NCBI GenBank assembly: GCA_043805855.1
Contig: JAZDHP010000005.1
Location: 1,132-65,131 of the forward strand
Length of the DNA: 64,000 bases
Source: Candidatus Micrarchaeota archaeon
Lineage (GTDB): Archaea; Micrarchaeota; Micrarchaeia; Norongarragalinales; UBA8480
Reading direction: 5' to 3'
Part shown: positions 17,601 through 64,000 of the stretch, piece by piece
Layout of the letters: every line of letters starts with the position of its first letter
Position numbering within the stretch: the stretch's first letter is position 1
The notes under the pieces: generated by a model
Told to the model about the DNA's origin: nothing
Database searches by the model: none
The model's input: the letters and a program-made list of their open reading frames with translations, nothing else
Program-made: the position numbers and the translations under genes

Positions 17601-20600
17601 GGACCTTGTGGTGCTGCAATTACATTTACGCGGATTGTCTTGCGCGCTCCATCTGGAAGTGTAACTTCGAGGTTTCCAGTTGCAGGGTAAGGTTGGCCAA
17701 CAAAGGAATAGTCGGCAGTTACTGTGATTGCGTCTTTTGTGCATTCGTCGATTTGTACAGCGTCTTTAACTGAATTTTGTGAAAACCCGTTGCCCATCTG
17801 GTATTGATTGTAGCCGTTTCCATTGTAATTATTGTAATTTGGCCCATATTGAGAGCCAGGTAATCCAACTGGATACGCACCTGGTCGATTGTACTGGTTT
17901 GCACCGTAGCCGTAATCTTGCCTTAGGATCCCGCCTGTTGAGCGGTCGTAGCTTACTTGTTGTTGCTGGTTGTAAGGTTGAAACGCTTGGTTGTACGGCG
18001 TTTGGTAGCCGTTGTAAGATAAAGGCGACATAAATGCTTGGGCTTGGTAAGCGCCTTGGCCAGTTTGGCACGCGCTGCAAGTTGCGCTAAGATGTACTGG
18101 CAATTGACTGCTTGTTGGTGCAGTTACTGGATTTGGAACGCATGCGCCGCACCCCCATTGCGAGGGAGTAACTTGCTGGCATTGGTTGCATTGCGATTGG
18201 CCGTTCATTGGCATTGTACACGCGGTGCACCACCATAAAACTGGAGTTGGCATTCCGCCTAGCACGCCACCTTGGTAAGTTTGACCGTAACCTTGACCAT
18301 ATCCTTGGCTATAACCTTGCTGGTATTGGCCAGCGTAGTTCATTCTCAAGCCAGATAAACGACAAGTTGGATCTGCTGATAAGCGTAGTGGAATTGAATA
18401 CGAGTCTTGCAAAAATGGCGGCATTGTAATTAATGTAATTGCGCCTGGCAATGGCGATGAATCGCTTCCAGTTGCAGCTGAGTTAATGCAACCTGGGCAT
18501 TCAACATCAACCATTAGAGGCAATTCTTCTGCTACTCTATACGTGCCAGCGCGTGCGGTAAACGTAGCAAGGCAGTTTGTGTTTGAAGTGACGTTGTTGA
18601 GAATTTTCAACGATAGCGTAGAGTCGCTGTTTGGCTCTATTGTTATAGATGTGGGAAATACTTTTAGTGGCACTGGATCGCCACCGCAATTAATTGACGT
18701 AGCAACGCGTATTGGTTCGTTCAATGCATTTGAAAGTGTAACTTGCTGTGCTTGTGGTTCAAGTGAAGACCCGGTAAATTCCATTGACTCGGGGTCAATT
18801 GCCAAGAAGTTTTTACCTTGCACAGTTACAGAGCATGTTTCAAGTGTCTTGAACCCTTCTGCTTCGACGCGGGCGCCGATTTCTCCAAGCCCAGTTGGGT
18901 TAACGTCAACTCGGTAGCGGCCAGTTAAACCATTGTTCTGCGAGCCGTCGCCTAGAAGTTGTTCTGGTTCGTTTCCAGAAAACGGCGAATTAGCACATTC
19001 GTATAAACCAACTGCTGCGGTTTCAACGTAGTTGTTGTTCTTGTCACGCACAACTATAGTTATTTTACTGTCTTGAAGTGCTGGCACTGTTGACGGCGCT
19101 ATTGTTGCTGTAAAGGCGTTTGTTCCAGATACAGTTAATTGCACTGGAATTTGAAATGTTTTACTTCCGCTGCGTAGTGTAAATGTCAACGGCGCGTCTT
19201 GGCTTACTTGCAACGGCGTTAAAGTCATTGACATTTTTGCTTTTTTGTTTGGAAGCGAAGTAAAGGGAAGGTTGAAAGTGCGGCCGCTTGTTGTTATTGC
19301 GCTAGCTGTAGTTGTAGCTGTTCCATCGTCTGCGAATGAAACTTTTTCTAAGCCGCTTAGAGTTTGGCGTGAGTTTTTCACGTTGAAGTGCTCAGTAGTT
19401 AAGCCAAGTGAATCAATTGAAACTGGCGAAAGTAATTCTAGTTCAAAGGTAAAGTCTTTTGCAATTTGCGGTTGGTATGTTGACGGGTTTCCCTGCGATG
19501 CACTATCAAAAAGGATTGCTTTCCAGCAAACGTCATCTTCAGTGCAAGTTAGTGTTTGTTGCGTTACTGGGATTGATTGAGTTACAACGCGCATTTGACA
19601 AGTGTCTTCTGGAGTTAAACGTAAACCTTCATCAATTTGTTGGCGTAGCGAGTCAAGTAGTTCAGTGTCGCTTGGGTAAATTAAAGGTAAGCCGTCTTTG
19701 AATGCAAATGCCTTGTAGTTTATTTTAATTTCAGCTCCTGCTTCTGCGGTTTTTGAAACTTTTACATTAACGACAAATTCTCTTGTGCCTGTAAAGCCAC
19801 GTGGGAACGAGAAGTAAACCCATTTCATTTCTTCACCAGCGTTGGTTTTGCCATTGTAACAAGATGAAGTTGAAGTGGCTGATGTTGACGTGGTTGAATT
19901 ATCTAACTCGCCGTTGTTTTCAGTGCTTTCCACGCTTTTTAATTCAGAGTCACTTTGAACATAAGGCGCGCCGTTGGAGTTGAATGAAGTTATAACCGCT
20001 GAACTCTCCGCAGTTGTTTGTTCGTCGCCAACTTGAACGTAAAACCCGGCGTTTTCGTCAACGTTTTGCGGCATGTTAACTGCGAATTTTGCACTGTACG
20101 TTTCTGCGTTGGCAACTTCTTTTGCTTTTACTCCCCGCGAGTCAAATAAACCAAGGAAGTTTACAGTTGCGCTTTGCGCGAGTGAAACTGGAAATAGTGT
20201 AACTGTTTCTTTTGCCTGTTCTGCTGGCGAAAATGTTTTTGTTGAAGTAACATAAGTTAAATATCCTGGCGCAGTTGCGCGTATTGTAAATTCTTTATTT
20301 GCAGCAACTGGCAAAACACAAGTACCGTTTAGCACGGTGCACGAAGAAACTGGAATTCCCTCTACAAGCGCTTCAATTGCACCGTTTGGGATTAGCTGGT
20401 CTGTTGCTAAATCTTTTAACGTAATTGAAACATTTGCAGGCATCGCAACTAAGTCAACCGTTAAAGATAACGGGGCGCTTGTTACGTCGACAACGTCACT
20501 TTGTCCACTTGCGGATTGTTTGGAAGCCTTTGCGTAAACTTTGTAAGCTGCACCTTCAACGGCTAATGGGATTGTCGCGTTTGCAATTCCTTCTCCGCCG

Positions 20601-29835: not shown

Positions 29836-32109
29836 ATGACTGGCGAGTTCGTTATCAAGCAAGAGGGCAGCAAGCGTTTACTAATTATTGACTATAAAGG
29901 CGCGAGCGTTGCCCCAGACATTGCACTTTACCCGCAGGTAATGCGCGACGTTATTGAAAAGTTACAAACAAACGACGCAGACGAAGTTGTACTAGCTGAA
30001 TATTATGAGAGAATTTACAACGCTGAACAAACGTCAATGCTACGCGGAATAGCAGATTTAATTACAAAGATGGAAACTGAAACAGTTTGGAGTCCATCGC
30101 ACTTAGGCGGGGAACACAGTGACAAGAAAACTATCGCAGCGCGGCACGATGCTGTACTCGCAATTGTTAACCAAACGTACGTTGACCCGTTCACTGCTTA
30201 TCTCGAGTTAATAAAATTAGTAAAAGAAGGCGCTGGCAGTTATGCAAAGGCGCAAAGTGCTGGCGATGAAAAGGCTCTTGAAGATTTCAAAATTTTCCTC
30301 GGCACACTGCAGTTCATGAAAAGTTTGTTCGACAACACGTCGTTGATAAAAAAGAGCAAGCAATACCTGGCACAAATTGGTAAGATGCCAGAAGGCCGAG
30401 CGATTTACCACTCAATGTTCGAAAGCGCAATCAAACCGTCATTCATCGGGAGTAGGATTTTCTTCACTGGCGCGGAAACATTAGAGTTAGTTGACCAGTA
30501 CGAAGTGCTCGGCTCAAAAGTTTACATCTATAAACATCCGGAAAAAATCGAGTACCTTTACTACATTAACCCGCCAGAGTACACACTTTCGCCGGATAAA
30601 TACTTCCTCCTCCAGAAGACAAAAGAAGTTGTCGCGGGACATCGGCCAACTAATGTTGGGTTCATGGATATGGGTCAAGCGCGTAAATACTTTAGAAAGA
30701 TTTACGTTGCAACAATTGCAGATATTGCTAACAAGAACGATATTAAATTAACAGTAGACGAAAAAGAAGAGTTGGCAACAATTGTCTCGCGGTATACAAT
30801 TGGCTACGGTATTTTGGAACTGCTACTTTCAGACCGGCAGCTTACTGACGTTTACATTGACTCTCCACTGGGAGACAAGCCAATTTATTTAGTGCACTCA
30901 AAGTACGGACAGTGCCAGACGAACATTATTTTCTCTGAAGAAGAGGCAAAGGCAACTGTTTCGCGTTTCAGAGCTTTGTCAGGACGGCCGTTTGACGAAG
31001 CGCACCCGATTCTTGATTTTGACTTGGCTGATTTGCAAACTCGTATTGCTGCTATTGGAAAGCCACTTGCAGTTGACGGCACAGCGTTTGCGTTGCGTTT
31101 ACACAAGGACACACCGTGGACATTATCGCAGTTCGTAGATTTCAAAATGATGCCAGCATTGGCAGCAGGGCTCCTATCTTACTTCGTAGATGCACAGGCA
31201 TCGATGTTAATAGTCGGCTCTCGTGGTTCTGGAAAGACATCTCTCCTCCAGGCAATGATGCAGGAAATCCCGCAAAACTTGAGGATTATTGTGCAGGAAG
31301 ACACCCAAGAATTACCAATCCCGCAGTTGAAGCAACTTGGCTTTAATGTACAGCGTCTAAAAACACGACCGCCGCTTGGAGCGCAAAGTGACGCTGAAGT
31401 AAGTGCAGAAGATGCGCTGCGTACTGCACTGCGTTTAGGAGATTCAGTGTTAATTGTCGGCGAAGTACGTTCAGGAGAAGCAAAGGCGCTCTATGAGGCC
31501 ATGCGTGTCGGCGCAGTTGGAAACGTCGTCATGGGAACAATCCACGGCGAAAGCGCATATTCAATTTGGGACCGAGTAGTAAACGACTTAGGGGTTCCAA
31601 CAACTTCGTTCAAGGCAACTGACATGGTCATAGTTACAGCACCTATACGATTCAAAGGCTCTCTCAAGAGACAACGTCGTTTAGTTGAAGTTACTGAAGT
31701 TAAAAAAGAATGGACTGAAGACCCAGGAAAGGAAAATGGTTTCTTAAACTGGATGTTGTTCGACGCACACAAGGATAACATGGAGTTGTTCAGAGACGAC
31801 ATTAAGCAAAGCGAATGGATAAAGAAAGTCATGCGCAACCGCGGTATAAATTACGAAGACATCTGGAGCGAAATTGTAACCCGCGCTGCAAGCAAACAAC
31901 ATTTAGTCGACGTGAAGAACAAGCACAATATTCCAAAAATCCTCGAGGCAGAGAACAGTATACGCGCACACACGAAGTTAATGATGCTAGGCGAACGCCA
32001 GCGCGAGGAAAACGGCAAAGTTGACCACAAAGAGTTATTGTCAGAGTGGCAAAAGTGGGTCGACACCGTACTCGCGAAGGAAGTAATTGGATTAAAAACA
32101 CTGGGTTAA
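29836..32109 (+). CDS. Type IV pilus/archaellum-type secretion ATPase (FlaI/TadA/GspE superfamily)
   Basis: 757 aa. Walker A VGSRGSGKTSLLQAMM, Walker B/Asp box DSVLIVGEVRSGE, His box TIHGES. First gene of the pilus-like locus. Confidence 0.85.
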   Translation: MTGEFVIKQEGSKRLLIIDYKGASVAPDIALYPQVMRDVIEKLQTNDADEVVLAEYYERIYNAEQTSMLRGIADLITKMETETVWSPSHLGGEHSDKKTIAARHDAVLAIVNQTYVDPFTAYLELIKLVKEGAGSYAKAQSAGDEKALEDFKIFLGTLQFMKSLFDNTSLIKKSKQYLAQIGKMPEGRAIYHSMFESAIKPSFIGSRIFFTGAETLELVDQYEVLGSKVYIYKHPEKIEYLYYINPPEYTLSPDKYFLLQKTKEVVAGHRPTNVGFMDMGQARKYFRKIYVATIADIANKNDIKLTVDEKEELATIVSRYTIGYGILELLLSDRQLTDVYIDSPLGDKPIYLVHSKYGQCQTNIIFSEEEAKATVSRFRALSGRPFDEAHPILDFDLADLQTRIAAIGKPLAVDGTAFALRLHKDTPWTLSQFVDFKMMPALAAGLLSYFVDAQASMLIVGSRGSGKTSLLQAMMQEIPQNLRIIVQEDTQELPIPQLKQLGFNVQRLKTRPPLGAQSDAEVSAEDALRTALRLGDSVLIVGEVRSGEAKALYEAMRVGAVGNVVMGTIHGESAYSIWDRVVNDLGVPTTSFKATDMVIVTAPIRFKGSLKRQRRLVEVTEVKKEWTEDPGKENGFLNWMLFDAHKDNMELFRDDIKQSEWIKKVMRNRGINYEDIWSEIVTRAASKQHLVDVKNKHNIPKILEAENSIRAHTKLMMLGERQREENGKVDHKELLSEWQKWVDTVLAKEVIGLKTLG

Positions 32110-34335: not shown

Positions 34336-36423
34336 ATGCCAGTGAAGAAGGAAGTTAAGGGGCTTTACAGCGGAGACAAGCCAACAAAGCAGTACGCTGA
34401 AAAACCGCGCGTCGACTGGTTTGTTAAGTTCGTCAACTTTTCCAACAAATATTTCGACAGTCTTGGAAAAGGCGCGAAGTTAACTAAAGAACAGCGGGAA
34501 GTTTTTGAATTTCTAAACTATAGAATTACTGGCGAGCAGTTCCGCGCAGCTGAAATCGCCGCAATGTTTTTGGGTTTATTCGTAACTATTTTTGCAGTTC
34601 TCGTACTTGCAATTATTTTCGGAACAGGCAGCCCGCTCTTCTTGATAGGTTCGTTGCTGTGCTTTATGGCGCCATTAGCGGCGTTTATGCTAGTTGCATT
34701 TCACCCGCAGCAAGAGGCAAAACGCGAGCAAACAATGGCGCTTGGTTACCTTTCAGAAATTGTTAACTACATGGTTGCTAGTATGCGACTTACTCCCAAC
34801 TTGGAAAAGGCCGTTGAGTTCACTGCATCGCATGGCCGCGGTAAAATCGCGGAGGACATGAAAAAGTTAATTTGGGACGTGCAAATTGGAAAATATTTAT
34901 CAGTTGAAGAGGGGCTTGACGACTTAGCGTACCGCTGGGGAAAGTACAACGAGGATTTCAAGCAAGCGCTGATGTTAATTCGCTCGAGTTTACTTGAGTC
35001 CGACGACGCAAAGCGCGAAATACTCCTAGAAAAAGCATCGGCCGATGTTCTTGAAGGCAGTAAGGAAAAGATGGACCAGTTCGCTCGCGCGCTATCGCAG
35101 CCAACTGTATATTTGTATTACTTTGGCGTGTTGCTACCGCTAATGCTCGCAATTGTGCTGCCAATTGGCGGAACGCTTTCAGGCGGCGATTTTCCACTAG
35201 CTCGTCCAGAGATACTTGCTTTGATTTACATTGTTGCGCTGCCAATTGGAATTTACTTCCTTGGGATTAACATCTTGGGCAACAGGCCGCCGACGTACAT
35301 TGCGCCTGACATTAAAGAAGATTACCCCGGGCTTCCAGCAAAAGGAACAATGAGAATTCTCGGCGCCGAACTTCCAGTTTTGCCAATTGCGTTGCTCGTA
35401 CTAATAGCTGTACTTGGCGCTGGTTTTTACCTAGATCAAATAATTACAGTTGCACCGCTAGAGCTTTACGAAAAAGCTGAAGCGCTAGCTGCGATGCCAC
35501 ACATTGAACTTTTTGGGGTACCGCCATCTGAACTATTTCTAGGACTATTTTCGCTATTAGGAGTAGTTGTTGGGCTCGGTTTTGCAATTTCAATTTACTT
35601 GTACGGCACTTACATCGCTAGGAAGAAAGTGCAAGATGAAATCCGCGCAATGGAGCGGGAGTTTAAAGACGCGATTTACGTTCTGGCAAGTCGACTTGGT
35701 GAGAACCGTCCGCTTGAAGACGCGTTGAAGTATGCAGTTGCGTTTCTTCCAAACAGTAAAGTTGCAAGTAAAGTTTTTAGAAAGATTCTCGACAATGTAA
35801 CAACAATGGGAATGACAATAGACGAAGCTGTGTTTAACCCGCAGTTTGGAGCGTTGAAAAACTTACCGTCAAAAACAATTCAAAGCGGAATGCGAATTAC
35901 AATTGACTCAATTGGACTCGGGGTAAACGTTGCGGCAAAGTCGCTCATTGGCTTAGCTTTACAGTTGAGAAACAGTGAAAAAATTGACTTACTTTTGAAC
36001 AACTTACTATCAAGCGTTACTCAGATGTTAAAAACAATGGGCACTTTCATCGCGCCAATCGTGCTGGGAGTAGTGACGAGTTTACAAGGAGTAATTGTAA
36101 AGGCAATGTCTTCAAACTGCGCTGACACACCAGCAACTTCAACTTCACCTGGCGTTTCGGGTTTTGGTGGCGCGAGTAATTTAAGTTCAATGTTCTGCAG
36201 TAAAACCGGCGAAGCAAATAGTTCAACTGACCCCGCTACGTTTACATTCATAATGGGAATATACGTACTTGAAGTCGTGATTCTACTTACTTATTTCAAC
36301 TCGCAAGTTGAAGACTCAAATAACAAGTTACACACGTACATTGAAATTGCAAAGGCGCTTCCAATCGCTACACTTATATTTGCCGCAGTGGCGTATTTTG
36401 CAGGGACAAGCATAGGCGTATAA
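34336..36423 (+). CDS. Polytopic membrane platform protein, TadC/FlaJ (T2SS-F)-like
   Basis: 695 aa with at least 8 hydrophobic helices in two blocks separated by soluble helical domains. Sits directly downstream of the ATPase and upstream of the pilin genes. Assignment is by architecture and context, with no diagnostic motif. Confidence 0.6.
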   Translation: MPVKKEVKGLYSGDKPTKQYAEKPRVDWFVKFVNFSNKYFDSLGKGAKLTKEQREVFEFLNYRITGEQFRAAEIAAMFLGLFVTIFAVLVLAIIFGTGSPLFLIGSLLCFMAPLAAFMLVAFHPQQEAKREQTMALGYLSEIVNYMVASMRLTPNLEKAVEFTASHGRGKIAEDMKKLIWDVQIGKYLSVEEGLDDLAYRWGKYNEDFKQALMLIRSSLLESDDAKREILLEKASADVLEGSKEKMDQFARALSQPTVYLYYFGVLLPLMLAIVLPIGGTLSGGDFPLARPEILALIYIVALPIGIYFLGINILGNRPPTYIAPDIKEDYPGLPAKGTMRILGAELPVLPIALLVLIAVLGAGFYLDQIITVAPLELYEKAEALAAMPHIELFGVPPSELFLGLFSLLGVVVGLGFAISIYLYGTYIARKKVQDEIRAMEREFKDAIYVLASRLGENRPLEDALKYAVAFLPNSKVASKVFRKILDNVTTMGMTIDEAVFNPQFGALKNLPSKTIQSGMRITIDSIGLGVNVAAKSLIGLALQLRNSEKIDLLLNNLLSSVTQMLKTMGTFIAPIVLGVVTSLQGVIVKAMSSNCADTPATSTSPGVSGFGGASNLSSMFCSKTGEANSSTDPATFTFIMGIYVLEVVILLTYFNSQVEDSNNKLHTYIEIAKALPIATLIFAAVAYFAGTSIGV

Positions 36424-54319: not shown

Positions 54320-54705
54320 CGCTAATCTAATTCTAAATTAAAATAAAAAGTTTCGAAAAAAGTTTTTAAGGCTGATATTTAACGAGCTGTTAAGCAGGAT
54401 TAGAGGGAAGAGAAAAGCCAGTATTAATAATAATTTTGGCAATGGCAGTGTAGATATTACTATGTTTTTTGTATTGACCTTTAGTGACCGTTAGCTCGCC
54501 ACTCGCCCTTACGGGCTCGCGGTTTACACTTCGATTCTATCAAACCCATCTGCTATGGGCGGTCTAAGCTGGCTCGTTTTAGGATTGACTTCGTCCTTAG
54601 ATGCTTTCAGGACTTATCCAAATAGCGCGTGGCTACGCTGCGTGCCGTTTAAATCCAATTGACAACAGCTTAACTAGCGGCGCCGATTCCCCGTTCCTCT
54701 CGTAC

Positions 54706-55404
54706 TTAGGGAGTCTTACCCTCAGCCAGCAATGCACTTCTAGGAGATGCCACCGAACTGTCTTTGTCGCCTTTCTTAACAGCTTTCAACAATTCAAAAC
54801 GTAAAATCTTGTCATTATGACAAGAACCAACAAAATTATAGAATTTCAAAACTTCAGCACTTCCATGAATAATCAAGGCATACATCTTTACAGAAGTGCC
54901 TTTTTTCACGTAAGGGCCGCATACGCGGCCACACTTGATTCCAAAATTCAATATTATTTTTCTTATTTCTTCAAGAACACCTTTATTGGCCTGAGCGAGG
55001 TAAATTCGAATGTTTGCTTCAGGAACTATTCCCATTTTTTCAAAAGAGTTTATACTTCCTTCAGCGTCGAAAAAACCTTTAACATAAGCTGCTTTTACTT
55101 CTTGCGAACCACAATAAATCCAACTTGGAGTTAACCAAGTAGCTTGATCGCCCGTAAATTCAGCTAATTTTGAAAGTTTTTGAAAAACTTCCTTTGATGT
55201 TATACTCAAGCACCAGACACCATGTCTCTTGTCAAGATAAAAACTTGGTTTTTTGTTAAAATTATTTATTATAATTCTAGAAAGAACCTCAAGCCATTCT
55301 TTATTTTTTTGATAAAGCCGAATGCGATAAATTCCTTCTTTAGGAACGATGGAAAAACTTCCATCTCGCAGTGTCCCAATCAAATAAGCTACTTCTTTAT
55401 TCAT
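54706..55404 (-). CDS. LAGLIDADG homing endonuclease (intron-encoded, double-motif)
   Basis: 232 aa. YLIGTLRDGS and KGFFDAEGSI motifs. C-terminus reads into the downstream exon. Confidence 0.75.
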   Translation of the reverse strand: MNKEVAYLIGTLRDGSFSIVPKEGIYRIRLYQKNKEWLEVLSRIIINNFNKKPSFYLDKRHGVWCLSITSKEVFQKLSKLAEFTGDQATWLTPSWIYCGSQEVKAAYVKGFFDAEGSINSFEKMGIVPEANIRIYLAQANKGVLEEIRKIILNFGIKCGRVCGPYVKKGTSVKMYALIIHGSAEVLKFYNFVGSCHNDKILRFELLKAVKKGDKDSSVASPRSALLAEGKTP

Positions 55405-55493
55405 AGCTTGAGAACGGATTTTTAGTTTTTAAATCTTAAGCGACACGTGCTTGCCGGTGTTCCAGTGAATTGTTTACTTTTTGCTAAGAGAGG
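54768..55493 (-). mobile_element. 23S intron 1 (rRNA 3'-proximal) carrying a LAGLIDADG homing endonuclease ORF
   Basis: Conserved block GGGTTCAGAACGTCGCGA is interrupted (E. coli ~2595 region) and resumes at GACAGTTCGGTG. Boundaries +/-10 nt. Confidence 0.6.
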
Positions 55494-55651
55494 TCGCGAC
55501 GTTCTGAACCCAACTAACGTGACTTTTTAATGGATGAACAACCCAACCCTTGGTGGCTCCTGCACCACCAGGATAAGTCGAGCCGATAGCGATGTACCAA
55601 ACCGCGCCGTCGATATATTCAATCGAAAACACCTTTGCAGATGTTTTATCA

Positions 55652-56600
55652 AAACCGCAGAAGAAAAATAAATTCACTTCCGGATTCTGAAACGAACAAA
55701 CGGAGCCTACGAGTCGTATGGTTCAAATGTTCTTGCGTTTCTCCCTTTTTTACAAAGTTAACACTGATCTGAAAAAGCCACTAACAATTAAATTAATTCC
55801 TAGTTGCAATTCTATCTAGTGCAACTTTGCCAAGGAAAAACGAAGACTTTGAATAAACTCGTTGGTTCTATTGCCGAATGTTCATGAAAAATGAACTCTC
55901 GGGCGCGACGAGCCTGTATAGAGTTTTCGATTTCAATTCATCACTAGCAAATTAAAATAATTTGTTTAAAGCATTTAGCTTTTCTGGATGCTCGATGCCA
56001 ATACAATCGCGAAAACGTGCAATGTTCTGCACGCCGCGTATGTTTAGCTGCCCAATGTCTCTGGAATTAGTTATCTTGTTAGAAACTATTCCAAAACTTT
56101 CAAGCATCTGCGCTATAAGCGCAAGTTTCAACGTGTCTTTTTGGTATATTTCAATTCTATAAGACGTTCCAGGTTTTCTTTTTGGAACGCTCCCCTCTGC
56201 GTCGAAAAATCCCCTTATGAAATGTGCTTTCACTTGAAGATCTTCATCCAACAGAGAAGGTAGATTTTGCATTGCGTTTTTTATTTCAAAAAACGCTTGC
56301 TTTGAATATATCCTTACTCGATAAAGTTCGCCTTTTGCCTCGCGTTTTCTAACTTTTGTATATTTGCCATAGACTTTTTCAAATCTAGGTAAAATAGAAT
56401 TAGCGAGCCAAGCGGCTACTTTCTGCTCATACTCAATACAATATTCCCCTCTTGCCTTGCATTGATACAAACAACCATCACCAAAAGCGCCTAGTAAATA
56501 GGCGAAATCTTGATTCATATTGATTGCAAGGAAATGTTGAATTTAAAGCTTGAGCTACACGTCGTTGCCAGTGATTTTGCGAATTGAAAACGAAATTACC
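55652..56600 (-). mobile_element. 23S intron 2 carrying a LAGLIDADG ORF. Inserted after GCTACCCTGGGGGTAA (the I-CreI/I-DmoI-type region of domain V).
   Basis: The exon sequence GGGGAUAACAGG is broken after GGGGGTAA at ~56600 and homology resumes near 55650 (..ATATCGACGGCGCGGTTTGGTACATCGCTATCGGCTC). Boundaries +/-25 nt. Confidence 0.55.
55952..56518 (-). CDS. LAGLIDADG homing endonuclease (intron-encoded)
   Basis: 188 aa. YLLGAFGDGC and RGFFDAEGSV motifs. Confidence 0.75.
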   Translation of the reverse strand: MNQDFAYLLGAFGDGCLYQCKARGEYCIEYEQKVAAWLANSILPRFEKVYGKYTKVRKREAKGELYRVRIYSKQAFFEIKNAMQNLPSLLDEDLQVKAHFIRGFFDAEGSVPKRKPGTSYRIEIYQKDTLKLALIAQMLESFGIVSNKITNSRDIGQLNIRGVQNIARFRDCIGIEHPEKLNALNKLF

Positions 56601-56811
56601 CCCAGGGTAGCTTGTCTGTCAGAAAGGACTCCCATTAACGGAGATGCCTTTGTTCGTTAAGCCCCACTTTCGTGTCTGCGTTCCATTTTGTTAAGAACAC
56701 AGTCAGGCCAGCATTTGTCTTTAACCCTCTACAGCGGATTTCTAACCCGCTTGAGCTGACCATTAGGCGCCTTTGTTATTTTTTCGAAGGCGTACCGCTT
56801 ACTGGCTTTCC

Positions 56812-57590
56812 ATAGCAAGCAAAAGTCCATAAAAAATATTTTACTTAACGAAGCAAATGCTTCGTTAAGGCCTTACACCTTTTAAGGTGTAAGTTAACCG
56901 GCACGGAGGTGTCGGTTAAAGTTTAAAAGCAACTAACTTCATCTCTTTGGTCGATGGATGAAAATTTAGCTACGCTTATTGGCATGTTATTGTCAGATGG
57001 ATCTGTATATTTCGACAAATCCAAGGGAACCTATTGTATTCAGTTCACTAACAAAAACAGCCAAATGCTTGAGTATTTCAAATTTTTAGTTCTCCAATGT
57101 TTTGGACGGCGCAATTTTCACATTAATAAATGTAAAAACGCGGTTTCTGTTCGCTTCTTCTCTAAAGGAATTGCTGAATTTCTTTTTACATTTTCTCCAT
57201 CTTTCAGAACCTTGCGGTTTAAAAATGGAACGTATCCAGAAACTAGAATTCCAAAAGAAGTGTTTGCTGAACAAAAATTCGCCGTTGCATTTCTACGCGC
57301 TTATGCGTCTTGCGATGGATGTATTTATTCCAACGAAAGTCACAACGCAGTTATAGAAATTGCATGCGTTCATCCTAAATTGAAACAGCAACTTTTTGAG
57401 TTACTTGAAACTCTCGGAATCGAAAGTTTAGTAACTGCAAAAGGAATTCGAATTTATCGTAGAAGCGAAGTTGAAAAATTCGCAACTACAATTCGTTTCC
57501 TTCCAGAAAGTACCGTTGTTCAATCTAGTTCTCCTAACTTAGGAAAACTAAAGAATGAAATTTTGGACTCTTGTTTATCTTGCCACAAGA
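56812..57590 (-). mobile_element. 23S intron 3. Its homing endonuclease ORF is on the plus strand, antisense to the rRNA.
   Basis: Exon homology (GGTGGATAGTTTGACTGGG, ~E. coli 2235-2255) stops near 57590 and resumes near 56810 (GAAAGCCAGTAAGCGGTACGCC). The rRNA-3' side of the intron carries the 60-nt element shared with the 16S ORF-less intron. Confidence 0.5.
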
Positions 57591-57619
57591 AAACACCCAG
57601 TCAAACTATCCACCTGTAG
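56954..57619 (+). CDS. LAGLIDADG homing endonuclease encoded antisense to the 23S rRNA
   Basis: 221 aa. LIGMLLSDGSVYF and LRAYASCDGCIY motifs. Last ~10 codons overlap the exon. Confidence 0.65.
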   Translation: MDENLATLIGMLLSDGSVYFDKSKGTYCIQFTNKNSQMLEYFKFLVLQCFGRRNFHINKCKNAVSVRFFSKGIAEFLFTFSPSFRTLRFKNGTYPETRIPKEVFAEQKFAVAFLRAYASCDGCIYSNESHNAVIEIACVHPKLKQQLFELLETLGIESLVTAKGIRIYRRSEVEKFATTIRFLPESTVVQSSSPNLGKLKNEILDSCLSCHKKTPSQTIHL

Positions 57620-57908
57620 CTGTTCCACTTCTTACATGAAGTGGTGAGATTCGCAGTCAAAGCAGAGCAGTGTTACACTTTCGCCTATTCGCACCCCGGA
57701 AGGTGCGACATAGCGGCTCCTGCTTACGCTGTGCAGTTTCAACCGTGAATCAACCACAGGCTATAGTTAAGCTCCATGGGGTCTTCGTTTCCCCCTAGAA
57801 GTTCCTGGCATGTTCACCAGGTAGTAAGTTCACCAGGTCCAAAGCAGGGACAGTGGGAGGCTCGTTACGCCATTCATGCGAGCCGCCAATTAAGCGGCGA
57901 GGTATTAC

Positions 57909-58628
57909 GCTCATGTCTGTTACACGCGTTTAAAAAATACGCGGGGTCAACCATTTCTGTTGACCTCTGCATATCGCTATGCAGATCGGACTATATCTTC
58001 ACCATTTCTGGCGTTTAGCGTATAGTCTCTGAGGATTCTAAATAAAACGGAATCGTCTTTCTGTTCATTGTGGAAATTATTCCAGCTATTTTGTCAAGTC
58101 CTTCCTTTGTTAAGTGTTGCTTTGCTTCCATGATTGAAAGAATTTCTGCAAATTTTTCCAAGTTCTTTTGTTTGGAAGTTTGCAATTTGTACCGTTTGAA
58201 GAATTCTACTATTAATTTCAAATTCTTTAAACCGCGTACGCGAAATTCTTTTCGATCACCGTGGTTTACAGTTACTTCTCCAAAACCAAAATATTCTTTG
58301 ATTCGGTAAAGCACTTGTTCATCACGTTGATGCTGCACAACTCTAAATTCTGGAAGAACCGTCCAGCCGGCGGACATTTTCTCTAGCTTGTTTATAGCTA
58401 CATGAAAACATCCTTCTCCGTCAACGAACCCAACGATCCAGTTTGGATTTAGTCTTTCCTGCTGATTGTCTGCACTCATAACATTGTCATTACAGCTCAC
58501 GTGTTTTTGATTTAAATTTAAATCGCAACACGTCATTGCCGGTAATAGTTTGAGATACCCCAGAGTTTCCAGCATATAGCTAAATTTTGTTAAGGCAAAT
58601 GTAATCTTACCTTAAGAGACTCAGAGTT
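57909..58628 (-). mobile_element. 23S intron 4 carrying a LAGLIDADG ORF. Inserted after ..CTTAAGGTA (E. coli ~1917 region, a known archaeal LSU intron site).
   Basis: CCUAAGGUA|GCGAAAUUCC is interrupted. The exon resumes at GCGTAATACCTCGCCGCTTAATTGGCGGCTCGCATGAATGGCGTAACGA (~57905). Confidence 0.55.
58015..58575 (-). CDS. LAGLIDADG homing endonuclease (intron-encoded)
   Basis: 186 aa. WIVGFVDGEGCFHV motif. Confidence 0.7.
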   Translation of the reverse strand: MLETLGYLKLLPAMTCCDLNLNQKHVSCNDNVMSADNQQERLNPNWIVGFVDGEGCFHVAINKLEKMSAGWTVLPEFRVVQHQRDEQVLYRIKEYFGFGEVTVNHGDRKEFRVRGLKNLKLIVEFFKRYKLQTSKQKNLEKFAEILSIMEAKQHLTKEGLDKIAGIISTMNRKTIPFYLESSETIR

Positions 58629-59227
58629 TAGACTGTCAGAGTTCCGTAGAACGCTGAATTAGTCCCGCTCTTTAGCAGTCCTTCATTGGGTTGAAACCCA
58701 ACTTCAGATACTACCAGTGAGCAGGCGTCACCCTCCGTACAAAACGTTTCCATCTTGCGGAGAGCTGTGTTTTTGATAAACAGTCGACCTCCCCTAGTTA
58801 TTGCAACCTACAGGTCCATACTTGATGTAATCTCGTACAAAAGTGTAGGCACCCCTTTTCCCGAAGTTACGGGGCTGACTTGCCGAGTTCCCTTGCTTTG
58901 GTTCTCCTGCCACGTCTTGGCTTTCTCTGCCAGGGGCACCTGTACTGGTTCTAGGTACGATCTCACGACTCGCTTCTTGCACTGTTTTCAGGGGCTCATG
59001 GATTCGGTTTGTATTTCCTAGCTTGAACAAGTGCTCTTCACAACGAAACTTCCTTGTTCTATTCTAGTTAAACGCTCAAGGAAATGAGCGCCAAACTTAT
59101 CCACAAGCGTCTAATGCAAGCTTGTGTTACCACGAGCTGTCGCGAGGCACACGAATATTAACGTGTTTCCCTTTCCGCTTTAATCACCGTTACGTGTAGC
59201 GTTAGGATCGGCTTACTCTTGGTCGAC

Positions 59228-59330
59228 TCGCTGAACCTTTTCTTTCTCAAAGAAATAAAACGTTCACGAAAAGAAAGATTTTAATTTTCTTTTCCGTAGA
59301 CGCTTTTCTTTTCCCAAAAGAAAAGGGTCT
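59228..59330. repeat. Cluster of three short A/T hairpins (CTTTTCTTT-N-AAAGAAAAG type) forming an expansion segment inside 23S
   Basis: ccttttctttctcaaagaaataaaacg / cgaaaagaaagattttaattttcttttccg / cgcttttcttttcccaaaagaaaaggg. Same hairpin family as in the ITS and tRNA introns. Confidence 0.6.
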
Positions 59331-60961
59331 CTAGCGTTGCCAAGAAACCCGTGCCCTTCCGACGTTGGAGTTTCTCACTCCAAATTGATGCTACTAATAC
59401 CAAGATATTCATTACTATTTAGTCCACACGTCCTCACGAACGTGCTTCGACCCAAACAGTACGCCCTCCTACCAAATCTACGCTTGTCTGCGTAGTTTTA
59501 CAGTATCGGTGACTGACTTTAGTCCCGATAGTTTGCAGCGCTTCGATTCTTGATGGATCCGCTGTTACGCGTTGTTTAAAGGATGGCTGCTTCTGAGCCT
59601 ACCTCTCCACTGTCTGAGAATCAAAACGCCTTTTGTTTACACTTAGCCAGTACTTTGGGACCTTAACTACAATAGGGGTCGTTCCCCTTCAGGAGTACGC
59701 GCTTACCTCGTACATCCCAACTCCCACCTTCTAAGGCAATACTAGCTTCGGAGTTCGACAAGAAAGTGAGGATTTTACTCCCCGCTCTTTCTGATCGGTC
59801 GCTCTACCTAGTATTCGCCTCCAGCGAGGCTGTCCTGCGGGACACTTCGGAGGGAACCTGCTAATGCCCAGCTCGAATGAACTTTCATCCCTAAACCCGA
59901 GTCACCCGATCGGATAAACCAGAAACGGTTGCAGGCCTCCACCAACCTGTAGGTCGGCTTCGCCTTACTCGGGCATAGATCGCATGGGCTTCAGGTTTCA
60001 CAATAGTGACTTATGGCCAGTTACGACCACTCTCCTGGCGTCTTGCGACGTTGCGAGAATTTTGGTTTCCCTGTGCATATTGCTCGCCACTCTCGTGAAC
60101 TCCTTGGCTCTTGCTTCGAGAAGTATGACGCAACGCTGGTCCCCCTTGCGGAGGTCCTTTCACGCCGCGCCTTCTTGTTACCATTTAGTTTCAGGCACTT
60201 TGAACTCCCCTTTCGGGGTTCTTTTCAGTTTTCCCTCTCGGTACTTAATTCACTATCGGTCTTGAGTTATATTTAGCGTTGCAAGTTAATACTCGCGCGT
60301 TCACATTCCCAAATCGGGGAACGCTACTCTGGACACTCGCACACCTTGAACTTCAGCGCTTACAGGGCTATCACCTTGTTGCGCGAAACTTTCCAGTTCT
60401 CTTCAGCTAAGAAATTCAAGTGTTAAAAGCGAGGCCAAACACCACATGTACGCCTCCTTGCGGGGCGAATTCGGTTTGCACTATTCTGCGTTCGTTCGCA
60501 CTAATAACAGAATCTCGAGTTTGATTTCTTTTCCTCTCCCTACTAAGATATTTCAATTCAGGAGGTTCGCAATCCTTTCGGATCAATTAAGACACCCACG
60601 GTTCAATGCCTGCATGCGGCTACCCGTGGCTTTTCGCAGCTTGCCGCGTCCTTCATCGCTACTCAAGCCTAACCATCCACTAAACGGTTTTAAAAGCAAG
60701 TAACATCTATTCTACCATTGCCAAAACGTATTTGAAACTTATACTTCTAAGTTTAAAATTGTTTTAACGTGGCTTTTTCTTCCCTCTAATTTTTGCCTAC
60801 TTAACAGCTTCACGTCTACAGCGGCTCGGAGCCACTGCATTATCAGCCTTATTCAGATTTAGCAAAGCCCGCATAAGAGGAACGGGTTTATATTTTGCAA
60901 ACCTACATTTTTTCGAACAACAAAACGCGCCATTTAAACGCATTCTATTTAGAAACTTGAA

Positions 60962-61225
60962 TGGACTCGACGGGATTTCCTTCACCCGTTTTCTTTTAAG
61001 GCAAAAGGCCTTTCATTCCAAAAGAAAAAAAATCAAAACAGTTTTTATGAAAACTATTTTTTCTTTTGGGGGTGACGGACCTTTTCTTTGTAAAAGAAAA
61101 GGGATGTCTTTGAACCCGCGACCTCCTGCTTTTCTGAGAAAAGAAATTTTCTTTTCGTCGACGTTTTCTTTTTGAAAAGAAAAGGTCGCTGCAAAGCAGG
61201 CGCGCTACCACTGCGCTACGAGCCC
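60962..61225 (-). tRNA. tRNA-Ala (anticodon UGC) with two introns: canonical 37/38 (59 nt, 61131..61189) and T-loop 59/60 (133 nt, 60976..61108). No encoded CCA.
   Basis: Hand-folded. Exon 1 GGGCUCGUAGCGCAGUGGUAGCGCGCCUGCUUUGCA (61225..61190). Exon 2 AGCAGGAGGUCGCGGGUUCAAA (61130..61109). Exon 3 UCCCGUCGAGUCCA (60975..60962). Gives a 7-bp acceptor with the G3:U70 Ala identity pair, 4-bp D stem, 5-bp anticodon stem (CCUGC/GCAGG), and T stem GCGGG/CCCGU. Lies in the 16S-23S spacer, as in typical archaeal rRNA operons. Confidence 0.7.
60976..61190. repeat. ITS / tRNA-intron hairpin repeats (CTTTTCTTTT-N4-8-AAAAGAAAAG family)
   Basis: ccttttctttgtaaaagaaaaggg (61080-61103), cgttttctttttgaaaagaaaagg (61161-61185), ttttcttttaaggcaaaaggcc / ccaaaagaaaaaaaatc (60988-61035). 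Both tRNA introns are built largely from these hairpins. Confidence 0.6.
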
Positions 61226-61929
61226 ATTTATTGTAAATAGAGTTTTTTGAAATTGTTTTTGGAAAGAAATGGCGTTTGAAAATTTAGGGACTAGATCTAG
61301 TCTGTATTCTATCGATTGCACAAAAAATGTTTGGAGGTGATCTAACCGCAGGTTCCCCTACGGTTACCTTGTTACGACTTAACCCTCCTCACGAACTAAT
61401 AGCTTGAATCAATCCGTTGGACTGAGCCTCACTAAAAGCTCGCTTGGGTGGCTTGACGGGCGGTGTGTGCAAGGAGCGGGGACATATTCACCGCGCGATG
61501 ATGACACGCGATTACTAGTCATTCCAGCTTCACGAGGATGAGTTTCAACCCTCGATCCGAACTTAGGTAAAGTTTTGGGGATTGCCTTCGCCTTTCGGCG
61601 TCGGAACTCATTGTCTTTACCATTGTATGCCACGTGTGGCCCAGGAAATTCAGGCCATACTGACCTAGCGTCGCCTTCTCCTTCCTCCCACTTAACGTAG
61701 GCAGTCTTCACAGAGTGCCCCTTACATTACTGTAAAGGTAGCAACTGTAAACGAAGATCTCGCTCGTTGCAGGACTTAACCTGACACCTCACGGCACGAG
61801 CTGACGCTGGCCATGCAACACTTCTCAGCTTGTCGGCCAAGATCTTTAGTCTGGGCTTCATTCTGCTGTCTTTCCTGGTGAGTTTCCCGGCGTTGAGTCC
61901 AATTGAACCGCAGCTTATGGAGCTAAGAG

Positions 61930-62242
61930 AAACACGGAAAATAATTATTAAATTTTCCCAACTAAGTTTATAAAAAAAGCTAAATGCTAATTTTTATTTT
62001 TTTAAAAATAGATATTAGTGGCTACAGGTTATTTAGTAAAAAAGTTAACTTACACCTTTTAAGGTGTAAGGCCTTAACGAAGCGAAAGCTTCGTTAAGTA
62101 AACTGGAAATTTTTGCGATCAATTGGCATATTGAGCTCGCTGAATTTTGTTGGTAACTTTACGTGTGGTAAATTTACCTTACAGTTTTCTTTTTAATTTA
62201 CGAAATAAAATGTAGCAGTGTATTCTCGAAGCTTATCCACGA
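61930..62242 (-). mobile_element. 16S intron B (~310 nt, no ORF), inserted after GCACCACAAG (E. coli ~920 region)
   Basis: The exon continues canonically to CACAAG at 62243. Homology resumes at ..CTCCATAAGCTGCGGTTCAATTGGACTCAACGCCGG (~61925). The intron contains the palindromic 60-nt element shared with 23S intron 3. Lower boundary +/-10 nt. Confidence 0.55.
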
Positions 62243-62384: not shown

Positions 62385-63011
62385 TTTCCGGCACTAGCTA
62401 GCTATATAAAAAGTTAAACCTATTCACGTTCAACGCGCCTGTGATGTCTATTCTAAAGCCACCATCAGAGCATCGACTGAGCGAACAGGCAATTTTATCT
62501 GCTTTTAACACTTTCACTATTTTCGTTATCGCTTTCTCGTTGTATATCTCAAAAGCGATACGTGGTTTGTTTCTCCACAGATAGCTATAAGCTTCTGCAT
62601 CGAATAAACCTTTTGTAAAAGCGCGGAAAAACTTTTTATTACTAAAATTTGGAATCACAAAAGTTTTACTTTTGTTTCTACCTTGGCAATGTAATAATTT
62701 TCTCAATTCAGCTTCAATTTTTACTGAATAAATTGAAATTAAATACATTTCGTGACCGTCGGAATATTTTCTCTTTTTTACTATTGGTTTTTTGCCAAAA
62801 ACTCTTTGCATTAGTTCAGCAATTTCAACTGACCTTTGTAAATATTTTGTACCAATAGAAATTCCGCGGCTTTGAAACCACCCATCTCCGGCAAATAATC
62901 CAAGTAAATAACAAAAATCCTTTGAATACATAGATTAGTTATTTGTATTGAATTATTAAGCTCATCGAGACAGGTCGTTGCCGGTGATTCCGGCTAATTA
63001 GCTAACTAGTG
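62385..63011 (-). mobile_element. 16S intron A (~627 nt) with LAGLIDADG ORF, inserted between GGATTAGATACCCGGGTA and GTCCTAGC (E. coli ~800 region)
   Basis: Exon homology breaks at 63011 and resumes at 62384 (GTCCTAGCAGTAAATTATGC). Confidence 0.6.
62398..62931 (-). CDS. LAGLIDADG homing endonuclease (16S intron-encoded)
   Basis: 177 aa. YLLGLFAGDGW and KGLFDAEAYS motifs. Confidence 0.75.
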   Translation of the reverse strand: MYSKDFCYLLGLFAGDGWFQSRGISIGTKYLQRSVEIAELMQRVFGKKPIVKKRKYSDGHEMYLISIYSVKIEAELRKLLHCQGRNKSKTFVIPNFSNKKFFRAFTKGLFDAEAYSYLWRNKPRIAFEIYNEKAITKIVKVLKADKIACSLSRCSDGGFRIDITGALNVNRFNFLYS

Positions 63012-64000
63012 TACCCGGGTATCTAATCCGGTTTGCTCCCCTAGCCTTCGCCCCTCACCGTCGGACGTGTCTTGGTACGACGCTTTCGCCACTGGTGGTC
63101 CTGCAAGGATTACAACATTTTACCGTTCCCCCTGCAGTACCTCGTACCTCCTCCACTCCCTAGTCTGGTAGTGTTCCCTGCTCGCCTCTAAGTTAAGCTT
63201 AGAGATTTGACAGGAAATTTTCCAAACCGGCTACGGGCGCTTTAGACTCAATATTCGTGGACACCACTCGTGCTACCTGTATTACCGCGGCGGCTGGCAC
63301 AGGATTTACCCACCACTTATTCTCCAAGCTATTCAAGCTTAGTAAAAGAATCCCTTTCGGGAATCACTCGGATTACCCCCGTCACGCTTTCGCGCATTGC
63401 GGAATTTTCGCGCCTGCTGCACCCCGGAGGGCTTGGGCCCTTGTCTCAGTGCCCATCTGGGGGCCATCACTCCCATGACCCCTACTGATTATAGGTTTGG
63501 GGGTCCGTTACACCTCCAACAGCCTAATCAGCCGCAGTCCCATCCTAGAGCGAAACCATTCCAATTCATGGCTCTTTTTACTCTTTCACCATTCCAGGTT
63601 GAAAGAGCTATGCAGTATTAGCGACACTTTCGCGTCGTTATTCCACTCTCTAGGGTAGGTTGACTACGTGTTATTCAGCCGTACGCCAAGACTCGAAGTC
63701 GAGTCTTTAGACTTGCATGGCTTAATCGCAATCCGATAGCGGTGTCCTCCAGCAGGATCAACTGGTGTTGAAGAACCGGTTTACCCGGTTCTCTGCTTGA
63801 GTCGCAATTTCAAGTAGGAATTGACTTTCTCTACTCCGCTAAATTTTTTTCTCACCCATTTCTTTCGAAATTTCAAAAAACCCTACGTCAAACCCAAGAC
63901 GAATGACTACGCGGTAGTTTGACTCGTTTAATTGAGTTTCCATAAAAAACTAGCACAGCTCGTAAACGTTTACTCGCCGAAGGAGAAACCTAAAGGTTCC

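Follow-up and report, generated by a model that had tools for sequence, protein, structure and literature searches.

Short A/T hairpins in the rRNA operon of a Candidatus Micrarchaeota archaeon (contig JAZDHP010000005.1, positions 1,132 to 65,131; this whole stretch of 64,000 nucleotides is called the window below) are probably the arms of three mini-introns without open reading frames (ORFs), which would belong to a mobile family of introns spliced by the tRNA splicing endonuclease at bulge-helix-bulge (BHB) motifs. One of the inserts interrupts the 23S rRNA gene, and the other two lie in the tRNA-Ala(UGC) gene of the 16S-23S spacer. Judging from sequence comparison, the three appear to be paralogues built on a single cassette with a covarying foot helix, a C.C mismatch and a U4CU4/A4GA4 helix, and it seems reasonably likely that the cassette family is, or once was, mobile. 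Rfam searches placed archaeal small and large subunit (LSU) rRNA genes, both far longer than the models, on the minus strand of the window, and the leucyl-tRNA synthetase encoded in the window has 100% identity to an NCBI protein from "Candidatus Micrarchaeota archaeon". Throughout, coordinates refer to the plus strand of the window and sequences are given in RNA sense, i.e., as the minus strand; L-numbers (L055, L130, L186, etc.) are labels of compared loci or operon fragments.

Hairpins of the window fall into three inserts

The exact pattern CTTTTCTTTN{2,12}AAAGAAAAG matched the window twice, at 59303-59325 and 61081-61101 (expected 0.00, 100 shuffles). A composite pattern, consisting of a U-arm, a loop, an A-arm, a linker of 7-15 nt and a further A-arm, matched three times, on the minus strand only (expected 0.00); the sites (59285-59324, 61059-61100 and 61147-61183) are distributed one per insert, with none elsewhere in the window. 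Of the 9-mer TTTTCTTTT, the window contains 27 copies where 6.9 would be expected, and 10 of the 27 lie between 59285 and 61183. For the 8-mer TTTTCTTT, counted on both strands, 12 of 41 occurrences lie within the three inserts, which total 296 nt.

A covariance model of the cassette was run over the whole 64 kb with filters off. Matches with E < 0.01 were obtained in the three inserts only (the rest had E > 0.3), and for each match in the window the RNA-sense strand outscored the opposite one. The best match was the first hairpin of the 23S insert (59299-59329, 47.2 bits), whose sequence belonged to the training set of the model. Intron 1 of tRNA-Ala was matched at 61157-61190 (29.2 bits) and intron 2 at 61075-61107 (30.3 bits) and 60988-61029 (17.8 bits). 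Both the pattern scan and the covariance model thus confirmed the places in 23S and in the two tRNA introns at which an earlier, sequence-only reading of this DNA had reported A/T hairpins. Its count of at least eight copies agrees with ours, since the purine/pyrimidine arms of the three inserts, read in RNA sense, amount to 6 + 5 + 4 = 15, or 7-8 hairpins. Nor are the copies generic AT-rich sequence, as the pattern search of the 64 kb found them in the three inserts only.

Two other elements of that reading have to be revised. Copies had been placed in the internal transcribed spacer, where we found none outside the two tRNA-Ala introns, and the hairpins had been described as separate miniature palindromic insertions; they are instead parts of three composite inserts with one colinear architecture. 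The common layout is foot, (C.C), U4CU4, loop, A4GA4, (G)CGUCNACG(G), A4GA4 and U-arm, and the C.C mismatch is present in all three inserts (C59326.C59302, C61184.C61163 and C61101.C60988). The arms are complementary, and the folds are more stable than those of shuffled sequences (z = -3.95 for the 23S insert and z = -6.36 for tRNA-Ala intron 2).

The two inserts of the spacer tRNA-Ala gene

When the unspliced window was analyzed with ARAGORN, no tRNA was detected, and Rfam returned only a sub-threshold partial tRNA match for the raw tRNA-Ala gene. Removal of both introns in silico produced a 72-nt tRNA-Ala(tgc) that was accepted by ARAGORN and contains the G3:U70 identity pair. It is very likely, then, that this tRNA is non-functional unless both inserts are removed.

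Intron 1, at the canonical position, contains the hairpins CGAC-C-UUUUCUUUU-CA-AAAAGAAAA-C-GUCG, which carries the C.C mismatch, and AAAAGAAAA-U-UUCUUUU. Its BHB motif is regular, with the anticodon stem CCUGC/GCAGG, the central helix UUUG/CAGA, the bulges CA↓G and AA↓A (arrows mark predicted cuts) and an inner helix formed by the three-way junction of the two hairpins; the cuts would leave a 7-nt anticodon loop, UUUGCAA. Intron 2 folds as a rod in which CAUCC-C-UUUUCUUUUA is paired with UAAAAGAAAA-C-GGGUG and further A/U hairpins are enclosed. In its minimum free energy (MFE) fold (z = -6.4), a symmetric 8x8 internal loop separates the T-stem from CAUCC/GGGUG. The junction of this intron is imperfect: the T-stem GCGGG/CCCGU is followed by UUCA/AGGA, with three of four pairs, and by the bulges AA↓G and AA↓U, and the predicted cuts would leave the T-loop UUCAAAU. 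At the same 59/60 site, locus L061 has a cleaner BHB (UUCA/UGAA, bulges AAU/AAU).

We compared the tRNA-Ala gene with those of 15 relatives. A T-loop intron is nearly always there, mostly of unrelated and often GC-rich sequence, and the A/U cassette occurs in it only in the window, L135 and L146. The 37/38 intron is found in few of these relatives; cassette introns orthologous to intron 1 are present in L055, L135 and L206/L209. Other mini-introns of the same relatives are without the cassette. In the L135 orthologue of intron 2, the C:G pair is shifted by one step in both arms (CCUUUCUUUU/AAAAGAAAGG vs. CCUUUUCUUU/AAAGAAAAGG), a compensatory change that supports the intron 2 hairpin.

The insert in 23S domain III

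In the Rfam LSU alignment, the 23S insert appears as 106 additional nucleotides in the loop of a hairpin (model positions ~1455-1458), which probably corresponds to the helix 53 region of E. coli. A metagenome scan with the 5' flank of the insert retrieved 93 related 23S fragments, of which 83 were informative. In 79 of them the segment is an uninterrupted 15 nt; L186 and L130 carry an orthologous cassette insert, and L134 and L164 carry unrelated inserts. The cassette is therefore present in this loop in 3 of 84 genes, the window included. The related Micrarchaeota operon L055 does not have the insert. Even among the five closest sequences the distribution is patchy, with the insert present in the window, L130 and L186 and absent from L135 and L171, which are nearest to the window (~88% flank identity, vs. 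~84% for L130 and L186).

An excision rule that fits both tRNA introns, i.e., cleavage 3' of the second base in the 3-nt bulges on both sides of a 4-bp helix, was applied to the 23S insert. With the helix CGCU/AGCG and the bulges AG↓A and AG↓U, the ligated sequence would be GCUAG↓UCGACCAAGA. The predicted product, GCTAGTCGACCAAGA, is exactly the commonest empty allele, with 27 occurrences among the 83 relatives. Any cut inside the AG repeat found at both junctions restores the same length, and the match to the empty allele shows precise insertion more than it shows the BHB register. The junctions carry only the imperfect repeat GCUAG/GCGAG, which is explained by the near-palindromic BHB helix.

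The predicted BHB combines the helix CGCU/AGCG and the 5' bulge AGA with the inner helix GA.C.CCUUUUCUUU/AAAGAAAAGG.U.UC. A fold constrained to it is less stable than the MFE fold by 0.5 kcal/mol (window) or 0.8 kcal/mol (L186), and in L130 it is the MFE fold. Both orthologues keep the helix CGCU/(A or G)GCG, the 3-nt bulges and the inner helix; in L186, U:G replaces U:A in the central helix and the bulge letters differ. The 3' module of the insert is conserved in L130, L186 and introns at other rRNA sites. The insert had originally been read as an expansion segment. Its absence from 79 of 83 related 23S genes and the restoration of the commonest empty allele by BHB-rule excision speak against this, and the 23S copy appears to behave like an intron or insertion and not like an expansion segment common to a whole lineage. 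We lean towards its being spliced and religated.

The domain III intron of L130 contains a nested 63-nt insertion that breaks the first A-arm and is not found in L186, with flanks 98.5% identical. The nested block consists of three hairpins with a different arm, AAAUGCC/GGCAUUU. Introns at this site seem to accumulate further hairpin elements.

Cassette inserts at other rRNA and tRNA sites of relatives

The cassette model matched 8 of the 93 related operon fragments, several of them at other sites (Table 1). The introns at 23S domain III, 23S ~1920, 16S and tRNA-Ala 37/38 (window, L186, L206 and L055) can be aligned colinearly, and the L206 16S and L186 domain III introns share an almost identical 3' module, AGUCGAGG-U-arm-loop-A-arm-GUCGGCG. 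At the rRNA sites, the sequence 5' of the insertion point is ...GCGNAR↓, and the 3' tails of the introns, G(G/A)CG, pair with it.

tRNA genes of other archaea carry the cassette as well. In the uncultured archaeon L004, a tRNA-Leu has three cassette-bearing introns (D-loop, 37/38 and T-loop), and a tRNA-Leu(UAA) of the Micrarchaeota locus L061 has a diverged cassette at 37/38 and an exact one, with a clean BHB, at 59/60. Genes of this kind are missed by standard tRNA finders. At five loci (L016, L041, L075, L077 and L186 1-200), cassettes start 1-9 nt past a tRNA 3' end on the same strand; in L077, the foot helix includes the last tRNA bases.

Table 1. Coordinates of the cassette inserts, of comparable inserts in relatives and of other features of the window
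Feature	Position	Strand	Remarks
23S insert	59227..59330	-	104 nt, ORF-less, predicted BHB mini-intron; apical loop of a domain III hairpin
23S insert junctions	exon 1 end G59331, exon 2 start U59226	-	AG repeat gives 2-nt boundary ambiguity
23S hairpin 1 (cassette)	59299..59329	-	foot GAC/GUC, C59326.C59302 mismatch, C:G pair, UUUUCUUUU-GGG-AAAAGAAAA
23S hairpin 2	59267..59296	-	CGG-AAAAGAAAA-UUAAAAUC-UUUCUUUU-CG; central hairpin of MFE fold
23S hairpin 3	59236..59260	-	UUUUAUUUCUUU-GAG-AAAGAAAAGG
23S insert 3' tail, UUCAGCGAG	59227-59235	-	tail AGCG and exon CGCU (59336-59333) form the 4-bp BHB helix
tRNA-Ala(UGC) gene, 16S-23S spacer	60962..61225	-	exons 61225-61190, 61130-61109, 60975-60962
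tRNA-Ala intron 1	61131..61189	-	59 nt, canonical 37/38; two hairpins
tRNA-Ala intron 2	60976..61108	-	133 nt, T-loop 59/60; nested rod
L186, 23S ~1920 site	between GGUAGCGUAA and UACCUCGCC		92-nt insert; window has a 744-nt LAGLIDADG insert there
L206, 16S	at position of window 63389/63390		86-nt insert
L153, 23S domain I			53-nt insert
L188, 23S variable region			cassette copy
L186, tRNA-Ala	directly 3' of tRNA-Ala		cassette copy
Large 23S inserts	55617-56595, 56799-57595, 57912-58655, from ~55494 downwards		
LAGLIDADG ORF in 23S insert	55952-56518	-	
LAGLIDADG ORF in 23S insert	56954-57619	+	antisense to rRNA
LAGLIDADG ORF in 23S insert	58015-58575	-	
Further ORF	starts near 55403	-	after GUUCAGAACGUCGCGA, LSU/2593-type site
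16S insert	61915-62234		320 nt, AT-rich, ORF-less, without cassette; vs. L055, L136
16S insert	62392-63020		629 nt, LAGLIDADG ORF 62398-62931; vs. L055, L136
Leucyl-tRNA synthetase gene	24868-27747		

The cassette across archaea

Confinement of the hairpins to the rRNA operon, as first described, does not hold, the same cassette being found in many other archaeal tRNA genes, and in tRNA trailers and intergenic spacers. In a collection of species-representative genomes, the composite pattern occurs at no fewer than 118 loci, and 65 of the matches listed are archaeal by record titles. They come from Micrarchaeota, Aenigmatarchaeota, Nanoarchaeota/Woesearchaeota, Altiarchaeota and Undinarchaeota, as well as from ANME-1/Methanophagales, other Methanomicrobia and Thermoplasmatales. 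Archaea account for only a small part of the collection; the archaeal share of the matches listed indicates a qualitative enrichment only, as the scan order is unspecified.

Excision of the cassette produced an ARAGORN tRNA spanning the junction in 24 of 126 matches listed and in none of 122 shifted controls, and all but one of the 24 are archaeal. The test, in which a canonical intron was allowed for, misses tRNAs that have several non-canonical introns (L004, L034), so 24 is a lower bound. Where an ARAGORN tRNA lies within 300 nt, 18 of 21 cassettes among the matches listed are on the tRNA strand. Positions occupied by tRNA-associated cassettes are the D-loop, 37/38, the variable region, the T-loop and the 3' trailer.

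Archaeal copies have two features that the search did not require, a covarying foot helix of 3-5 pairs outside the A/U helix and a C.C (or pyrimidine) mismatch between the two. The covariation score of the foot, computed on the 42 cassettes of equal length (out of 72), was 0.270, against 0.104 for shuffles (none of 500 reached the observed value) and at most 0.094 for slid controls; foot position 2 is unpaired in 24 of the 42. Among the matches listed, a C.C mismatch at foot position 1-2 is present in 28 of 69 distinct archaeal copies and in none of 45 bacterial ones. Subtypes of the linker recur in different phyla. The subtype GCGUUNACGG was found in ANME-1 spacers, a Nanoarchaeia contig, the tRNA-Leu of an uncultured archaeon and the 23S gene of the window, and CCUG(U/C)(G/A)CU in spacers of ANME-1/Methanomicrobia and in tRNA-Ala and 23S introns of Micrarchaeota. 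ANME-1 copies are found in short spacers, whether the genes on either side are divergent, convergent or tandem.

No Rfam family covered the cassette, either at the gathering threshold in 18 loci or at E <= 1 in the window spacer. Weak matches to PyrR and to plant microRNA families were set aside as noise from AU-rich hairpins.

Look-alike hairpins of bacteria and phages have the form X-U4CU4-loop-A4GA4-X'-(1-3 nt)-A4GA4; their foot covaries, is paired throughout and lacks the C.C mismatch. They were found in Patescibacteria of the Candidate Phyla Radiation (CPR) (L006, L009, L018, L020, L039, L082, L084 and L085), in Clostridia (L002-L003, L015, L025, L033, L040, L042 and others) and in viral contigs (L217, L218, L223 and L224). 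In CPR bacteria, the hairpin is the sharp 5' boundary of a repeated element of ~300+ nt that has a similar hairpin at its other end and no Rfam match. Given the perfect foot and the lack of a C.C mismatch, we judged the bacterial look-alikes to be a separate matter. A scan of viral contigs gave 14 matches, mostly of the bacterial perfect-foot type and one archaeal-like, and no clear viral vector among them.

Proposed excision and spread

Since the arms of the cassette are identical, two folds are open to each insert, a row of tandem hairpins and a single nested rod. In the mechanism that we propose, the U4CU4 and A4GA4 arms would pair in the primary transcript, locally or as a nested rod, and bring the two ends of each insert close to each other; for the 23S and T-loop introns, only the nested rod, and not the tandem hairpins, would achieve this. 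The exon-intron junctions would form a 4-bp helix flanked by two 3-nt bulges, the tRNA splicing endonuclease, which in Micrarchaeota is of the broad-specificity epsilon2 type, would cut in each bulge, and the RtcB ligase would join the exons and circularise the intron. The epsilon2 endonuclease of Micrarchaeota has a broad specificity and accepts relaxed motifs at non-canonical positions (PMC3239211, PMC3488258).

Since relatives have the cassette sporadically at other sites, and other phyla have it in both tRNA introns and intergenic DNA, it behaves as a mobile, selfish intron family. The original suggestion of selfish mini-elements was thus broadly right for whole mini-introns on the shared cassette, though not for single hairpins. 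How such introns would move is a matter of speculation. The near-palindromic GCG pairing of the intron tail with the target would fit a choice of site at the RNA level, and it would fit selection among random DNA insertions equally well. As a tentative extension, one can imagine that the cassette and the trailing A4GA4 might be the cis-acting core of archaea-wide non-autonomous mobile elements that create BHB introns and move between tRNA, 16S, 23S and intergenic sites and between phyla (DPANN, ANME-1 or other Euryarchaeota). A possible route would be a choice of site through base pairing between the 3' tail and the target, comparable to RNA recombination by an endonuclease and a ligase. That an endonuclease can mediate RNA recombination has been shown experimentally (PMC8707768).

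Opposing evidence and alternative explanations

Several observations weigh against a family of mobile BHB mini-introns. The exact-pattern scan favours identical arms, so conservation of the core is overstated, and the arms drift in orthologues. Look-alike hairpins occur in bacteria and phages, which lack the BHB splicing system. The T-loop intron has only three of four central pairs and an A.A mismatch. The outer helix of the 23S insert is weak, its folds showing an internal loop (CAA/CGA) and a 3' bulge of 4 nt, so that the motifs of both introns are "relaxed"; excision and religation at the 23S site are what we infer from sequence comparison. The same 23S loop houses unrelated inserts of 124 nt (L134) and 182 nt (L164) and may simply tolerate extra RNA. 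The patchy distribution could also be explained by one gain followed by loss. The inserts of L134 and L164 belong to a different sub-clade, are without the cassette and have no obvious AGCG tail; the loop may be an insertion hot spot or tolerant of expansion.

Some of these points bear on the possibility that the 23S copy is retained as a small expansion segment, or is cut without religation to give a fragmented 23S rRNA, only the tRNA copies being true introns. An insert at the tip of a hairpin loop that folds as a compact rod (z = -3.95) behind a weak outer BHB helix, in a loop that accepts unrelated sequence in L134 and L164, is what one would expect in this case. However, 79 of 83 relatives, including the two closest, have no insert, the 23S copy can be aligned colinearly with genuine tRNA introns of this operon, the 4-bp helix and 3-nt 5' bulge are kept in three orthologues, with a U:A to U:G change, and BHB-rule excision restores the consensus loop exactly. 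We consider retention or fragmentation unlikely.

The cassette could, alternatively, be an element of the DNA level, akin to miniature inverted-repeat transposable elements (MITEs) or palindrome-associated transposable elements (PATEs), moved as single-stranded DNA by a hairpin-recognising transposase; inside tRNA and rRNA genes it would persist only where a BHB chances to arise and lets it be spliced out, intron behaviour being a by-product. This would account for the intergenic copies in ANME-1 and other archaea, which occur in every gene configuration, and for linker subfamilies (CCUG(U/C)(G/A)CU and GCGUUNACGG) common to ANME-1 spacers and Micrarchaeota introns; a conserved C.C mismatch makes the hairpin strand-asymmetric, and in CPR bacteria a hairpin does bound a repeated element at its 5' end. 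On the other hand, genic cassettes are almost always in RNA sense, all copies in the window are inside RNA genes, and the GCG motif of the rRNA sites pairs with the intron 3' tail, which points to site choice or selection at the RNA level. No transposase, terminal inverted repeats (beyond the internal hairpins) or clean target-site duplication was seen, a partner element not having been searched for. Taken together, this makes a DNA-level origin rather doubtful.

It is very unlikely that there is no family and no mobility, and that neutral AT-rich introns acquired palindromes by local inverted duplication or slippage and converged on low complexity. The arms are indeed of low complexity and drift in orthologues, the exact search enforces identity of the core, and the nested 63-nt block of L130 shows that a different hairpin, AAAUGCC/GGCAUUU, can appear. 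Parts outside the arms are nevertheless common too (the (G)CGUCNACG(G) linkers, the AGUCGAGG...GUCGGCG module, the C.C mismatch, the order and the orientation), other mini-introns in relatives do without the cassette, and nothing comparable was found elsewhere in the 64 kb.

A role as functional cis-elements, i.e., protein-binding sites (Sm-like, L7Ae or Alba), rRNA-processing signals or oligo-U terminators, would suit the archaeal copies 1-9 nt after tRNA 3' ends or between convergent genes, and a core and C.C mismatch conserved beyond the needs of pairing, but is highly improbable. Inside a tRNA or rRNA gene, a terminator would do damage; the hairpins are missing from most relatives, in which this operon is processed all the same; copies lie also in promoter-side spacers; and no known motif or Rfam family matches. 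Protein binding, which the sequence-only reading had considered, found no support in the present analysis. Triple-helix, ENE-like, H/ACA, K-turn and terminator readings were dropped, their defining features being absent from the sequence. The omega-RNA of IS200/IS605 elements (PMC12558985) was judged irrelevant to the cassette.

Relation to known introns and repeats

Multiple and non-canonical tRNA introns are known in ARMAN/Micrarchaeota (PMC3239211), and archaeal BHB introns at non-canonical tRNA positions have been reviewed (PMC4090602, PMC4033280). The closest parallel is the "transposition" of tRNA introns in Thermoproteales (Fujishima 2010, as cited in PMC3239211), with which our case shares several introns in one tRNA (37/38 and T-loop), a relaxed BHB and similar introns at different positions and genes; the host phylum here likewise has a broad-specificity endonuclease. 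In contrast, a single family here spans tRNA, 16S and 23S genes, and its cassette recurs across DPANN, ANME-1, Altiarchaeota and Thermoplasmata and in intergenic DNA. The small hairpin-type BHB introns of Thermoproteales 16S genes (category iii of Jay & Inskeep 2015, PMC4496867) are also ORF-less, consist of little more than a hairpin that maintains the BHB and are sporadic among relatives, whereas those described here come from a different phylum (mesophilic DPANN archaea), are longer (53-169 nt), have several hairpins and are homologous to tRNA introns of the same operon.

In Micrarchaeota, rRNA genes contain LAGLIDADG group I introns, and group I and BHB introns co-exist in one gene (Nawrocki et al. 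2018, PMC6125680). Host genes and phylum are the same here, and the window itself has large inserts with LAGLIDADG genes, five of them in 23S and one in 16S. The hairpin inserts (59-133 nt) are, in contrast, too short for a group I core and have no ORF, and Rfam Intron_gpI gave no match over them. With MITEs and with repetitive extragenic palindromic (REP) or PATE repeats, the cassette has in common that it is short, non-coding, hairpin-forming and multi-copy and lies in some archaeal intergenic spacers; it differs in that its orientation is tied to the host RNA and its boundaries are predicted splice sites. Like rRNA expansion segments and the intervening sequences of bacterial 23S genes, the 23S insert adds helical RNA to the tip of a conserved 23S hairpin, but it is found in 3 of 84 genes, its precise excision restores the loop and it is homologous to tRNA introns.

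In the open-access literature, we found no description of an ORF-less intron family common to tRNA, 16S and 23S genes or of a C.C-mismatch cassette and its intergenic copies in unrelated archaea, and searches aimed at the motif itself, at tRNA or rRNA introns of DPANN/Micrarchaeota or at MITE-like elements in introns retrieved nothing.

How archaeal BHB introns are gained and moved is an unsettled question, and "transposition" in Thermoproteales was inferred without a mechanism or a cis-element. The cassette offers a handle on intron spread, with its covarying foot and conserved mismatch, with several rRNA and tRNA sites at which close relatives have both filled and empty alleles, with near-identical modules in 16S and 23S introns of different genomes and with the same subtypes in intergenic DNA of ANME-1. 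If it exists, an archaea-wide mobile element would be a direct and testable source of non-canonical archaeal introns. There is also a practical side, as cassette introns hide tRNA genes from ARAGORN and distort rRNA gene calls, which biases completeness estimates of metagenome-assembled genomes and rRNA-based surveys of DPANN archaea.

Other inserts and genes in the window

The 23S gene spans 54476-60704 on the minus strand, a sub-range Rfam search reaching model position 2973 of 2987; the 3' end first given by the Rfam LSU model, 56452, was wrong by ~2 kb. The segment 55500-55616 is 23S sequence by blastn against L136 and presumably corresponds to the ~2500-2593 region of E. coli. Inserts make up ~3.2 kb of the ~6.2-kb gene. 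The large ones may be group I introns of the kind reported in Micrarchaeota; one of them, distinct from the hairpin inserts, contains a sub-threshold group I match at 57967-58146 (35.5 bits vs. a gathering score of 50). In the 16S gene, two inserts were delimited by comparison with L055 and L136 (Table 1), and L184 and similar relatives have many more 16S inserts at other sites.

Elsewhere in the window, a 2426-aa ORF occupies 14660-21940 on the minus strand. T2SSE and T2SSF domains in neighbouring ORFs (29836-32109 and 34336-36423) suggest a pilus- or archaellum-like secretion cluster unrelated to the hairpins.

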